64,000 bases of DNA, taken from NCBI GenBank assembly GCA_964354795.1, contig CAYHBB010000037.1, positions 110,197-174,196 on the forward strand, in the 5' to 3' direction. This DNA is from an uncultured Planctomycetales bacterium (lineage in GTDB: Bacteria; Omnitrophota; Gorgyraeia; Gygaellales; Profunditerraquicolaceae). The translations under genes and the position numbers were made by a program. The notes under the pieces were generated by a model that did no database searches, had not been told where the DNA came from, and saw nothing but the letters and a program-made list of their open reading frames with translations. Of this stretch, positions 2,972 through 61,584 are shown piece after piece. How positions within the stretch are numbered: the stretch's first letter is position 1; each line of letters begins with the position of its first letter.

Positions 2972-3062
2972 CTCCTTACCCCACAGGGGTAGGCCTTACT
3001 GTCCTATAAGTAAGGGCCTTATCCAGAGGGTTAGGCCTTACTATCCTATAAAGTAAGGGCCT
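2972..3062 (-). repeat. GC-clamp hairpin repeats (TACCCC-ACA-GGGGTAGGCCTT + GGCCTTACT...AGTAAGGGCC, second hairpin duplicated). Member of a hairpin family also present at 48096-48560.
   Basis: The near-identical 45-nt sequence TTACCCCACAGGGGTAGGCCTT(A/C)CT...GGGCCTTA occurs at 2972 and ~48165, with compensatory changes in the second stem. It lies between the SxtK-like stop and the next gene start. Confidence 0.7.
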
Positions 3063-3218
3063 AGAAAAGTGTATAGATAAACGGAGCGACTGCGCTGCCC
3101 TGCGAAAGGAATATCAAAATGCCCAGCAACAGCAAAACTATGATGATCGGCGCAAGCCACCATTTCTTCCTTACCCGCAGGAACTGCCAAAATTCATTGA
3201 TAATTGAAAGCTTTCCCA
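3063..3218 (-). CDS. SxtK-like small membrane protein (51 aa), unannotated in the ORF track
   Basis: Minus-strand ORF MGKLSIINEFWQFLRVRKKWWLAPIIIVLLLLGILIFLSQGSAVAPFIYTLF*. The ATG sits immediately after the SxtJ-like stop. The EFWQFL.RKKWW...APFIYTLF pattern matches, from my recollection of the family, the tiny protein that accompanies SxtI/SxtJ-type carbamoyltransferase modules. Confidence 0.6.
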
Positions 3219-16377: not shown

Positions 16378-16473
16378 AATTACTCCTTCCGCAGAAAGCG
16401 GAACACCAGCCTATCCGCCCCAGAAGGGGCGTACTTGGCAATCCTTTATGCCAAGGTGCTTTAAGGCTGGGTG

Positions 16474-46874: not shown

Positions 46875-48089
46875 CTACTCAATATTCAAATCGTGTCCGA
46901 GTTTCTCTTTCTTCGCCTTTAAATACTTATAATTCAGCGGATTAGGCTCTACTTCAAGCCCGACGCGCTCCACTACCCGCAAACCATACCCCTCTAAACC
47001 GACGATCTTTCTGGGATTATTAGTTAATAATCGGATATATTTTATTCCTAGATCCACCAGTATCTGCGCGCCAATTCCGTAATCACGCAAATCCGCGGCG
47101 TGTCCCAGGGCAACATTCGCCTCAACTGTATCCATACCCTTATCCTGCAAGCCGTAAGCCTTGATCTTTTCTACCAGCCCGATTCCCCGGCCTTCCTGGC
47201 TCATATAAAGGACAACTCCTTTTTTCTCTTTATGAATCGCCTGCATAGCCAAATCTAACTGCCGGCCGCAGTCGCAACGCAAAGACCCGAAAACATCTCC
47301 GGTAAGACACTCTGAATGCACGCGCACTGTCACTGGCTCACTTGCCGCAAACTCTCCCATCACCAAAGCGGAATGCACTTTATTGTTGGTCAGATCCTTA
47401 TACAAGATCAAATTATACGTGCCGAATTCCGTGGGCAACACTGTCTGAGCAACTCTTTCGATCAGTTTCTCCGAGCCCCGGCGGTATTCAATAAGGTTAG
47501 CGATAGAGCAGATCTTTAAATTATGCTGTTTGGCAAAATCCAGAAGCTCGGGCAGACGGCTCATTGTCCCGTCATCATTCATGATCTCACAGATCACCCC
47601 TGCCGGAAACATTGCGCCAAGCTTCATCAGGTCAACCGAAGCTTCGGTGTGACCTGCCCTGACCAGCACCCCGCCGGCCCTGGCACGTAAGGGAAAAATA
47701 TGCCCGGGTCGGATCAGGTCTTCGGGCTTGCTTTGAGGATTGATCAAAACTTCAATAGTGCGGCTTCGGTCAGGAGCGGAAATCCCTGTAGTTACGCCTC
47801 TAGCCGCATCCACGGAAATCACCCAGGCAGTCTTAAGGGGGTCTTCCTTCTTGGAATGAGTCCGGTCTTTAAGCATGGGCTCAAGGTCCAGCTGCTGCAA
47901 CCTTGACTCTTCCATGGGCACACAGATAAGCCCGCGGCCGTACTTGGCCATGAAGTTGATGTGTTCAGGCCTGGCAGCGGAAGCAGCCATGACCAGGTCG
48001 CCCTCGTTTTCGCGGTCCTCATCATCGACGATGATCACCATGCGGCCTTTTTTTAGATCTTCTAAGATTTCTGGGATAGAGTTAAACAT
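46875..48089 (-). CDS. ribBA: Bifunctional 3,4-dihydroxy-2-butanone-4-phosphate synthase / GTP cyclohydrolase II
   Basis: DDEDRENEGDLVMAA... (DHBP synthase) and a C-terminal GTP cyclohydrolase II domain (CDCGRQLD zinc site). The start was moved to MFNSIPEIL (RBS AGGAAA); the ORF-track extension spans a leader hairpin. Confidence 0.9.
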   Translation of the reverse strand: MFNSIPEILEDLKKGRMVIIVDDEDRENEGDLVMAASAARPEHINFMAKYGRGLICVPMEESRLQQLDLEPMLKDRTHSKKEDPLKTAWVISVDAARGVTTGISAPDRSRTIEVLINPQSKPEDLIRPGHIFPLRARAGGVLVRAGHTEASVDLMKLGAMFPAGVICEIMNDDGTMSRLPELLDFAKQHNLKICSIANLIEYRRGSEKLIERVAQTVLPTEFGTYNLILYKDLTNNKVHSALVMGEFAASEPVTVRVHSECLTGDVFGSLRCDCGRQLDLAMQAIHKEKKGVVLYMSQEGRGIGLVEKIKAYGLQDKGMDTVEANVALGHAADLRDYGIGAQILVDLGIKYIRLLTNNPRKIVGLEGYGLRVVERVGLEVEPNPLNYKYLKAKKEKLGHDLNIE

Positions 48090-48095
48090 ATTAGT

Positions 48096-48215
48096 TTTCC
48101 TAACGGTACCCCCGTTGTTTCGCTTCGCGAAACAATTCACGGGGGTTATTTCAGCCATACACTTTACCCCACAGGGGTAGGCCTTCCTATCCGATTAAGG
48201 AAGGGCCTTATGTCG
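48096..48215 (-). repeat. Two GC-clamp hairpin modules (family TACCCC-stem-loop-GGGG + short palindromic hairpin) in the ribBA leader, between the riboswitch terminator and the start codon
   Basis: TACCCCCGTTGTTTCGC...GCGAAACAATTCACGGGGG and TTACCCCACAGGGGTAGGCCTTCCT...AGGAAGGGCC. The latter is nearly identical to the element at 2972. Confidence 0.65.
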
Positions 48216-48244
48216 CCCAGTGAGGGCTTCCATAAAGTGTGGCT

Positions 48245-48276
48245 TCAATAAAAAGCCCGAAGATGATCTCCGGGCA
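48245..48276 (-). terminator. Intrinsic terminator of the FMN riboswitch expression platform (GCCCGGAGAUCAUCUUCGGGC + UUUUUAUU)
   Basis: GC-rich 7-bp stem, 7-nt loop, and a U-tract on the minus strand. The stem contains AUCUUC, identical to the 5' strand of aptamer helix P1, which could compete for the P1 3' strand GAAGAU. Confidence 0.7.
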
Positions 48277-48285
48277 TGGGTGGAA

Positions 48286-48592
48286 TGAATAATCTTCTCT
48301 CATCTAGACTTTGCCGAGAAACGGCACCCCAATCTATCCTTTAAGATTGGGGGTACCCACTTCTGCGCTACCCCCAGCTTTATAGGTACAGCTGGGGTAT
48401 GCTTTCGGCATTACTATCGGCTCTGGCTTTACCAGATCTGCTCCAGCTATTGCTGAAGCTCGCGGGCTTTACCCCCAGCTTTATTGGAAAAACTGGGGTG
48501 CAGTCTGCATTACCCCCGGCGTTATTGGAAACGCCGGGGTAGGCTTTCTGCCTTACCGCCGGTCGGGAATCTCACCCTGCCCTGAAGATTAC
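48286..48592 (-). promoter_or_regulatory. FMN riboswitch (RFN element), unusually long (~300 nt) with about four inserted double-hairpin modules
   Basis: The minus strand reads AAUCUUCAGGGCAGGGUGAGAUUCCCGACCGGCGGUA... at the 5' end and ...GGCAAAGUCUAGAUGAGAGAAGAUU at the 3' end. These match the highly conserved 5' and 3' halves of the RFN consensus, and P1 is AAUCUUC/GAAGAUU. The element lies upstream of ribBA-ribH. Confidence 0.8.
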
Positions 48593-48603
48593 ATCAGAAT
48601 GTA

Positions 48604-48631
48604 AGTATAGCAGAAAATCTTAGCTTGTCAA
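48604..48631 (-). promoter_or_regulatory. Sigma70-type promoter for the riboswitch/rib operon (-35 TTGACA, 16-nt spacer, -10 TATACT)
   Basis: Minus strand reads TTGACAAGCTAAGATTTTCTGCTATACT, placed about 10 nt upstream of the aptamer 5' end. Confidence 0.55.
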
Positions 48632-58674: not shown

Positions 58675-58890
58675 CAGCCTAAGCGAACAGAAACTTTCTA
58701 ATTAACTATGCCTGATGCACAGACGAATTCAAGCCTATTCTAACCTAAAAAGAAAGCGCTTTCAAAGACCGGTGGAGCCCCTAGAATTAATGGTCGAGGC
58801 TCCCCCCTGAAGCACACCTTGCCTTAAAGGATAGGCAAGTGTGTTGCTTTCTGCAACAAACCACATTCCGCAAAGAACATAGCAGGGGAA

Positions 58891-59625: not shown

Positions 59626-59701
59626 CCATACCTCCACTATTTAGTAAACTCTTCTTCCTTCACAGCAAGTGAACACCGGCCTCACCTATAAGGCCGGGTG
59701 T

Positions 59702-60184
59702 TCAATATACTCTTCTTCCTTCAACCTTCTCCCAATCATTCAAAAGCTTCATACACTCGGCTCTGTCAAAGTGAGCGAATATTTTAACACTGCTTTTGCC
59801 TTTTGTCTTCAAATTTTTAGCTGAAATACTTAGCTCGCAAAATCCCAGCTTCTTGACGTCGGCGATGTTCGTCCCGTAGATCACCGCATCCAGTCGCGCC
59901 CAGTGAATAGCGCTGAAGCACATCGGACACGGCTCGGTAGTGGAATATATGACGCATCCTGAAAGGTCAAAATGCCTCACTTTTCTCGAGGCAATACGGA
60001 TGGCGTTTACTTCCGCATGGCAGGTGGCGTCTTCTTCCAGCACCGTATTATGCGCTACTGCCAGGACTAAATTATTCCTGACAATGCAGGCGCCGAACGG
60101 GCCGCCATTAAGGGTTCTTAAGTTTTTGCGCGCCTCCTTTATAGCCAGGCGCATATAATTTAGCTGCGGCCTCATCCGGATCAC
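59702..60184 (-). CDS. Nucleoside/tRNA-specific deaminase (CDA fold)
   Basis: Zinc motifs CHAEVNAI ... PCPMC. 160 aa. Confidence 0.75.
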   Translation of the reverse strand: MIRMRPQLNYMRLAIKEARKNLRTLNGGPFGACIVRNNLVLAVAHNTVLEEDATCHAEVNAIRIASRKVRHFDLSGCVIYSTTEPCPMCFSAIHWARLDAVIYGTNIADVKKLGFCELSISAKNLKTKGKSSVKIFAHFDRAECMKLLNDWEKVEGRRVY

Positions 60185-61524: not shown

Positions 61525-61584
61525 AGAAAGCTCCTTGCGCGGAAAGCGCAACACCAACCTTTCCTATTAGGTTGGGTGTATCTC

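Follow-up and report, generated by a model that had tools for sequence, protein, structure and literature searches.

The window analysed here, 64,000 nucleotides of contig CAYHBB010000037.1 from an uncultured bacterium of the phylum Omnitrophota, encodes a riboflavin-synthesis operon whose 5′ leader carries a flavin mononucleotide (FMN) riboswitch of unusual size. Its aptamer measures 300 nt, compared with a usual length of about 120–140 nt; the excess comes from a ~45-nt double-hairpin repeat, four copies of which occupy its loops. We regard it as probable that this is a working FMN off-switch, the tolerant loops of which have been colonized by an unstable or mobile palindromic repeat. Since the repeat modules appear, vanish, invert and nest between close strains and recur in settings that have nothing to do with the riboswitch, the most plausible view is that of a palindromic repeat tolerated at permissive sites. 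The modules would persist in the riboswitch because positions in the P3 and P6 loops (and, in relatives, the P4 loop) accept inserted helices. Judged from its sequence, the riboswitch has been left hidden from standard annotation and is probably still working.

Identification of the aptamer

A preliminary description of this locus had claimed an FMN riboswitch roughly double the usual size, and the claim stands: a local E-value search of Rfam matched the FMN riboswitch family RF00050 at 53 bits (E = 4e-11), the RNA is predicted to fold into the six helices of the class, and the aptamer spans 300 nt from P1 to P1. The minus strand does contain both conserved blocks on which that description had relied, AAUCUUCAGGGCAGGGUGAGAUUCCCGACCGGCGGUA on the 5′ side (48590–48554) and AAAGUCUAGAUGAGAGAAGAUU on the 3′ side (48312–48291). 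As it had proposed, AAUCUUC (48590–48584) and GAAGAUU (48297–48291) form P1 in the minimum free energy (MFE) fold, together with two more pairs. This fold, calculated for 48286–48596 without constraints, recovers all of P1–P6, and the additional hairpins extend from P3 and P6 (−139.8 kcal/mol, z = −7.8); none of 100 shuffled sequences folded as well.

Alignment to RF00050 placed P1-5′, P2, P3, P4 and P5 cleanly. It assigned 81 inserted nucleotides to the P3 loop, gave P4 and P5 a high posterior probability and matched every highly conserved consensus position of the 5′ core. The same alignment set P6 and P1-3′ on the wrong bases, and the score fell short of the RF00050 gathering score of 66.2 bits, because the large second insert, in the P6 loop, exceeds the span of the model. 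The comparison with RF00050 that the preliminary description had recommended thus returned a significant local match, yet one below the gathering score. For the same reason a default Rfam scan overlooks the aptamer; at gathering thresholds, Rfam gave no match in the whole 64-kb window. The 3′ block could be assigned to P6-3′/J6-1/P1-3′ because it is homologous to the corresponding part of two related leaders, L081 and L085, which match the full RF00050 model.

When the modules were removed by eye and the remainder was compared with the RF00050 consensus, the conserved core proved to be present (AGGGC, GGUG..UCCC, ACCGGCGGU, CCGCGAG, AGA, GCCGA and AGUC.AGAUG.GAGAAGA). P6 shows a compensatory change, with UAG/CUA in the window and UGG/CCA in relatives. 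The six-helix core is canonical and its highly conserved positions are intact. In every feature tested save the curated score, then, the sequence is that of an FMN-class riboswitch, and we infer that it binds FMN and retains its regulatory role. Moreover, only loops have received insertions, a restriction implying that purifying selection on the riboswitch core has continued.

An alternative would be that the insertions have disabled FMN sensing, leaving a decaying riboswitch whose leader is now constitutive or acts through its terminator only. The sub-threshold score fits such decay, as do the module load of the window, which is the heaviest or near-heaviest seen, and the ability of the P6-loop modules to join as one long hairpin in the MFE fold. 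Nevertheless, P1, P2, P4, P5 and P6 all pair around an intact core, P6 has changed in a compensatory manner, promoter and terminator are intact, and the sparing of everything except loops bespeaks selection that is still operating. We consider decay very unlikely.

Architecture of the inserted modules

The extra length is indeed made of repeated double-hairpin modules, as first described. There are four of ~45 nt each, two in the P3 loop (48557–48468) and two in the P6 loop (48415–48309). The preliminary description had spoken of about four, but they do not form the single tandem array that it envisaged: the canonical P3-3′/P4/P5/P6-5′ core (48470–48412) separates the P3-loop pair from the P6-loop pair, and module 4 is inverted. 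Both insertion points fall at the same position of a shared motif, between GGUA and AAAG; in P3 the insert stands between GGCGGUA and AAAGCCCGC, and in P6 between GAUAGUA and AAAGUCUAG. Apart from RF00050 itself, no Rfam family matched the modules above noise in the local E-value search.

Each module consists of hairpin A, of 3–5 bp with an A-rich loop, and hairpin B, of ~10 bp, which has (A/C)CC/GG(G/U) at its base, a one-nucleotide G or A bulge on the 3′ arm and a loop resembling AUCCUAUA. Module 1 is common to the window and to the leaders of its relatives L169 and L081. Module 2 is found in L081 too, whereas L169 has just an extra hairpin A at that place. Module 3 is nearest in sequence to module 2 and to the second P3 module of L081, and has no counterpart at the same position in any relative compared. 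Module 4, inverted with respect to the RNA, has its bulge on the opposite arm and UUUCU as its small loop in the RNA; in its stem, CCCCAAUC/GAUUGGGG, it agrees with the module that L081, L082 and L085 carry in P6.

Module gain and loss among relatives

Close relatives were located singly through contigs encoding RibBA, the product of the first gene of the operon; those listed by a metagenome RibBA scan were all at most 79% identical. The relatives of RibBA place the organism in the Omnitrophota. The orthologous leaders share cinA–ribBA synteny with the window and exceed the RF00050 threshold across the full model. Module content differs even between leaders whose RibBA proteins are almost the same. 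L169 (RibBA 99% identical) has one module plus the extra hairpin A in the P3 loop and none in the P6 loop. L081 (92%) carries two and one, respectively, L170 (85%) at least one and none, and L082, L085, L088 and L172 (84–86%) none in P3 and one in P6, while L002 (77%) has no module in either loop and is fully compact. More distant Omnitrophota bear one or two P3 modules (L001, L007, L008, L012, L090, L093 and L100), P4-loop modules (L003, L007 and L089) or P6 modules (L009, L089, L091, L094 and L095). Nested modules occur in L009 and L011, and inverted modules lie within riboswitch loops in the window, L091, L094 and L095. Insert lengths are quantized at about 45, 90 and 135 nt, and a loop may hold 0–3 modules, in either orientation.

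The RF00050 score drops with rising module load: 106 bits for L002, 98 for L012, 95 for L001, 92 for L085, 80 for L081, 75 for L090 and L008, 71 for L007, 69 for L095 and 53 for the window, with no match for L094. According to the preliminary description, leaders lacking the modules between unchanged flanks would speak for recent neutral insertion. Exactly such leaders were found, without P3 modules in L082, L085 and L088, without P6 modules in L169 and without either in L002.

A module was also observed in a protein-coding gene. The cinA genes of L081 (232–279, minus strand) and L170 (799–846, minus strand), which adjoin the rib leader and diverge from it, contain a clean in-frame module of 42 nt (14 codons). 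Their proteins read GPTG-CAEAHTGAS(Y/F)SAG..-T..KPIG across the insert, compared with GPSGGTTRKPIG in the window. The insert is absent from the window, L082 and L085, and the 156-aa gene call of L169 agrees with the uninterrupted genes.

In L090, L096, L099 and L100 the P2 loop contains a hairpin of another kind (CCUGCCUG...CAGGCAGG), and in L098 the P5 loop is enlarged by ~45 nt; every peripheral loop is therefore expandable in Omnitrophota, even where tertiary contacts are ascribed to it. L169 and the window are almost the same from the promoter to the end of the first module. P4–P5 differ at many positions, in a compensatory manner, despite 99% RibBA identity (window 48412–48470, L169 1360–1420), which points to recombination or to exceptionally rapid turnover within the leader.

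Module family and dispersed copies

A covariance model built from leader copies only (R1) and a second covariance model (R2) were used to search for further members. A hairpin pattern of the form CCCC...GGGGGUA had matched five times in the window, always in the rib leader, against 0.48 matches expected by chance, giving rise to the idea that the module is confined to the leader; the covariance-model search ruled this out. A hand-written hairpin-B pattern was too loose, with 103 mostly spurious matches outside leaders, and flagged the variants at 2974, 3029 and 48162. In total, the 64-kb window holds 12 copies, five in the 0.57-kb rib leader and seven elsewhere. The latter fill short gaps between minus-strand genes, and all but one of them are antisense to those genes. 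Four of the seven were found by R1, which had not been trained on them, and a fifth (16413–16462) by R2 only, likewise untrained on it.

The R1 match of the copy between the DUF362 and PKD-domain genes, which is not in the R1 training set, spans 61537–61580 on the plus strand. Among the variants, a sub-family has hairpin A of the form CCCC-ACA-GGGG and hairpin B of the form GGCCUU.CU...AG.AAG(G)GCC. Two of its copies, at 2974–3022 and 48162–48211, are near-identical in sequence although ~45 kb apart, the second being inverted. The copy at 48162 belongs to the R2 training set, and R1 gives it 12 bits.

Two features of the surroundings were recorded. A direct repeat of 15 bp, ACTCTTCTTCCTTCA, lies on either side of the copy at 59656 (59640–59725, plus strand), and the C-terminus of the deaminase next to it is unchanged because the duplicated segment re-creates its last codons (..EGRRVY-stop), with three synonymous differences. 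The plus-strand copies at 2974, 16386, 59656 and 61533, antisense to the flanking genes, start right behind CTCCTT or CCTT, which is complementary to the Shine–Dalgarno sequence of the next minus-strand gene. This adjacency could reflect a target preference, a portable Shine–Dalgarno sequence, or only the free space available in gaps of 60–100 nt.

Pairing within the family is preserved through compensatory changes, as the preliminary description had stated. In an alignment of 18 copies, 94% of cells were paired, compared with 31–41% when the 3′ partners were slid, and 10 of the 14 pairs showed two-sided changes. A 40-copy alignment, which takes in inverted, dispersed and variant copies, gave 95% compared with 26–39%, with two-sided changes in 13 of 14 pairs. 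That description had gone further and read covariation as a sign of selection on riboswitch RNA rather than insertion debris. This reading did not hold: since the module is also inverted, nested, dispersed between genes and present in the cinA coding sequence, covariation is a property of the palindromic repeat family and not evidence of a riboswitch-specific function.

The broader notion behind it, that the modules are adaptive RNA domains, selected because they stabilize the P3 and P6 T-loops, adjust folding during transcription or serve as binding sites for a protein or another RNA, draws on more than covariation. The bulged purine and the hairpin-B loop are conserved across RibBA identities of 66–99%, leader copies are mostly sense, rib leaders hold most of the matches in relatives, and the P6 module has been kept, with compensatory changes, in several relatives with 84–92% RibBA identity. 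On the other hand, presence and absence vary between strains with 99% identical RibBA, and fully compact aptamers such as that of L002 exist in the same clade. The same loops are occupied by inverted copies, in which the loop sequences are complemented, and hold anything from zero to three copies, with nesting possible. Antisense copies in unrelated intergenic gaps and the in-frame copy in cinA likewise sit poorly with an adaptive role, which we judge improbable.

Origin of the modules

The repeat is best pictured as an unstable or mobile DNA element of the Omnitrophota lineage, and the modules would then be "expansion segments" supplied to the riboswitch by selfish or slippage-prone DNA. We infer that they are neutral to the riboswitch, and any mechanism of their copying is likewise putative. 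Published work lends support to the tolerance of the loops: L2–L6 and L3–L5 are the peripheral contacts of the FMN riboswitch, with L3a and L4 exposed to solvent (PMC3201879).

Several observations weigh against this explanation. The aptamer scores below the curated threshold of its family (53 compared with 66.2 bits), and no clear anti-terminator helix was found, the segment from P1-3′ to the terminator folding into the terminator only. In addition, the rib leader is about six-fold enriched in modules relative to other non-coding DNA of the window, and some 30 of 35 model matches in 457 kb from relatives lie in rib leaders; two of the five others are the cinA insert adjoining the leader. Passive tolerance by itself does not obviously explain this concentration. 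Conservation of the bulged purine and of the hairpin-B loop extends to relatives whose RibBA is only 66% identical, which implies that something recognizes the structure. Finally, the usual marks of a mobile element were not seen: no transposase among the 29 small and medium window open reading frames (ORFs) scanned and none near copies, no evident terminal inverted repeats in the 40-copy alignment, where the unit is two independent hairpins, and no evident target-site duplication of fixed length, with direct repeats of 5 bp at 61533, ~7 bp at 16386, 15 bp at 59656 and none in cinA. In a gene-dense genome, passive tolerance may still account for part of the concentration in rib leaders; a true target preference, local copy-and-paste via the shared GGUA/AAAG flanks, or a riboswitch-linked role may also lie behind it.

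It is possible, if unlikely, that no dedicated mobile element exists and that the palindromes spread by replication slippage, template switching and ectopic gene conversion, seeded by the GGUA...AAAG flanks. The leader would then be a local hot spot and the distant copies rare by-products, a corollary that we hold just as tentatively. Tandem arrays and an inverted neighbour within one loop are consistent with slippage. So is the close similarity of module 3, in the P6 loop, to the second P3 module, as well as the ending of each P3-loop module in GGGGGUAA, which echoes the flank GGCGGUAA. The sole coding insertion seen is in cinA, the neighbour of the leader, the window ORFs scanned revealed no transposase, and direct repeats flanking copies vary in length. 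Such a mechanism would nonetheless have to account for copies 10–45 kb from the leader and for the near-identity of those at 2974 and 48162, and the same conserved features at 66% RibBA identity would be hard to obtain from independent events.

A bolder and rather doubtful proposition is that the module is an undescribed kind of mobile element, or of mobile RNA domain, and that it resides chiefly in the T-loops and hairpin loops encoded by a gene for structured RNA. If so, the bulged purine and the hairpin-B loop would be recognition features of an enzyme that targets loop-encoding DNA or uses an RNA intermediate, and the "variable insertions" of this riboswitch would arise by active, site-preferring invasion and not by drift. 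The crowding of copies in the rib leaders of relatives and in the neighbouring gene would be compatible with a genuine target preference or with a riboswitch-linked function.

Relation to known elements

The riboswitch shares with RF00050 the six-helix junction, the conserved core, the riboflavin gene context and the terminator platform. Insertion in the P3 T-loop (P3a) is a recognized facultative feature of FMN riboswitches (PMC2258182). The window differs in having inserts in both the P3 and the P6 loop, and its relatives in having them in the P4, P2 and P5 loops as well; moreover, the inserts of the window clade are built of a recurrent ~45-nt module, in one to three copies and either orientation. 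The P6 and P4 loops, besides P3, can evidently hold 45–160 nt of extra structure.

Among repeat families, the module resembles in behaviour the REP, REPIN and BIME sequences of proteobacteria, whose transposases are the RAYTs. These sequences are likewise short imperfect palindromes with a bulged base, mostly intergenic, arranged in tandem and inverted pairs, biased in orientation, and maintained as hairpins by compensatory change. The module differs in that its unit has two hairpins, its copy number seems low and concentrated in one leader, and its copies also lie inside structured RNA and coding sequence. The 40-copy alignment showed no consistent GTAG/CGTC REP tag, GTAG preceding hairpin B only in the variants at 2974 and 48162; in most copies hairpin B is preceded by GC-(A/UA)-CACC. 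The scan of 29 small and medium window ORFs revealed no RAYT (Y1/HUH) transposase. Nor does the module show the terminal inverted repeats and fixed target duplication by which miniature inverted-repeat transposable elements are recognized.

Rickettsia palindromic elements (RPEs) insert in frame into protein genes, and also into RNA genes, without destroying them. They are about 100–150 bp long and belong to a different phylum, and are likened to the module by behaviour alone; in-frame coding insertion, an RPE-like trait, is what was observed in cinA of L081 and L170.

A search of the accessible literature for repeats within riboswitch aptamers, or for Omnitrophota repeat elements, returned nothing relevant save a pneumococcal BOX element. 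This element lies between two T-box riboswitches of a trp leader and is co-transcribed with regulation retained (PMC3049150); it thus stands between two aptamers, whereas the module lies within aptamer loops. In yeast mitochondria, mobile GC clusters are small palindromes that add helices at tolerant peripheral loops of rRNA (PMC4478555). Compared with these clusters and with rRNA expansion segments, the FMN aptamer represents a different RNA, a different organism and a different element.

The family provides a concrete source for the "variable insertions" of riboswitches, in the form of a recurrent palindrome gained and lost among strains that are otherwise almost identical. In addition, it brings a repeat family to the little-studied phylum Omnitrophota, one that inserts into RNA loops and coding sequence. 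Furthermore, the clade offers a natural experiment, in which FMN aptamers with zero to five or more modules set peripheral bulk against the co-transcriptional folding of a switch that is kinetically driven. For annotation it exposes a blind spot: at curated thresholds the aptamers of the window (53 bits) and of L094 (no match) are overlooked, and gene callers read through the leader.

Table 1. Positions of the riboswitch, its modules and associated features in the window
Feature	Position	Strand	Evidence
Complete FMN (RFN) aptamer, P1 to P1, 300 nt	48291–48590	−	RF00050 match, MFE fold, homologous leaders
5′ core: P1-5′ (48584–48590), J1/2, P2, J2/3, P3-5′ to GGUA	48554–48590	−	RF00050 alignment
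Central core: P3-3′ (AAAGCCCGCGAG), P4, P5, GCCGA, P6-5′ (UAG), UA	48412–48470	−	RF00050 alignment, fold
3′ core: AAAGU, P6-3′ (CUA, 48305–48307), J6/1 GAUGAGA, P1-3′ GAAGAUU (48291–48297)	48291–48312	−	Fold, relatives
Module 1, P3 loop, sense; A = GGC-AGAAA-GCC, B = ACCCCGGCG...CGCCG(G)GGGGU	48509–48557	−	R1 63 bits
Module 2, P3 loop, sense, hairpin A shortened	48468–48505	−	R1 32.8 bits
Module 3, P6 loop, sense	48367–48415	−	R1 53.6 bits; repeat family D1/D2
Module 4, P6 loop, inverted relative to the RNA	48309–48357	+	R1 38.9 bits on the plus strand
Sigma-70-type promoter: TTGACA, 16-nt spacer, TG-TATACT	48604–48631	−	11/12 matches, extended −10
Intrinsic terminator: 9-bp stem GCCCGGAGA/UCUUCGGGC, 3-nt loop, U-run	48247–48275	−	Terminator scan, fold
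ribBA, 404 aa, first regulated gene	46875–48089	−	Gene context, relatives
143-nt insert between terminator and Shine–Dalgarno sequence; second repeat family (AAUGAGGCCACAACUUAUGG...)	48104–48246	−	Comparison with relatives
Variant module nested in the insert, inverted relative to the RNA; A = CCCC-ACA-GGGG, B = GGCCUUCC...GGAAG(G)GCC	48162–48211	+	R2 46.4 bits
Dispersed copy, gap between DUF362 and PKD-domain genes, antisense to both	61533–61582	+	R1 34.9 bits, E = 4e-7
Dispersed copy between deaminase and CsgG-like genes	59656–59704	+	R1 33.8 bits
Dispersed copy between CsgG-like and PilZ genes, sense to both	58811–58861	−	R1 24 bits, E = 2.5e-4
Dispersed module with a second module (16413–16462) nested in its hairpin-B loop	16386–16477	+	R1 27.1 bits; inner module R2 25.8 bits
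Two tandem variant modules, intergenic gap	2974–3065	+	Hairpin-B pattern scan, R2

Expression platform and operon

The aptamer lies in the 5′ leader of the riboflavin-synthesis operon, with a promoter and, as expression platform, a terminator (Table 1). The promoter is kept in the leaders of relatives. An intrinsic terminator follows the aptamer, as the preliminary description had recognized, with its stem at 48275–48255, the U-run thereafter and a 3′ arm that repeats AUCUUC; it is conserved in all relatives compared. In the proposed mechanism, binding of FMN would keep P1 (48590–48584/48297–48291) closed, the terminator at 48275–48255 would then form, and transcription would halt before the genes that follow the leader, in the order ribBA (ATG at 48089), ribH, nusB, PHP, ribD and ribE.

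The terminator arms (GGAGAU/AUCUUC) are near-copies of the P1 strands (GAAGAU/AUCUUC) in the region 48255–48297 of the minus strand, and P1-5′ together with J1/2 could pair with the 5′ arm of the terminator over ~10 bp. A classical anti-terminator was considered and rejected: several alternative pairings are possible, because the terminator arms mimic both P1 strands, and none is convincing.

The start of RibBA is the MFNSIPE at 48089, in agreement with relatives of 403–404 aa. An upstream in-frame ATG extends the frame to a 427-aa ORF (46875–48158, minus strand) that takes in the leader hairpins; in L172 (589–1920) the publicly annotated gene, of 443 aa, likewise reads through the leader.

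Post-terminator insert

Beyond the terminator, the leader had been described as continuing for about 170 nt with two more modules of the same family. It does continue, for ~158 nt, and its 143-nt insert belongs mainly to a second repeat family. Of the two modules described, one is an inverted variant module (48162–48211) and the other a B-like hairpin (48107–48145). The closest relatives, L169, L081, L082 and L085, are missing the insert; in L169 the intergenic region measures 291 nt, compared with 571 nt in the window. The 5′ part of the insert is homologous to sequence in L089, L092, L095 and L013 and in the P6 loop of L011.

This second family (AAUGAGGCCACAACUUAUGGAGCGAA...CAUAAGUUGU..., in most cases with a hairpin GAAUUAUCCCC...GGGGGAUAAU behind it) stands right behind the terminator U-run in L089, L092, L095 and L013, and within the P6 loop in L011.

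As for the wider setting, the minus strand holds 57 of the 63 long ORFs of the window, ~91% of which is coding, and genes for class-I methyltransferases and sugar-nucleotide enzymes are abundant in its first ~30 kb.

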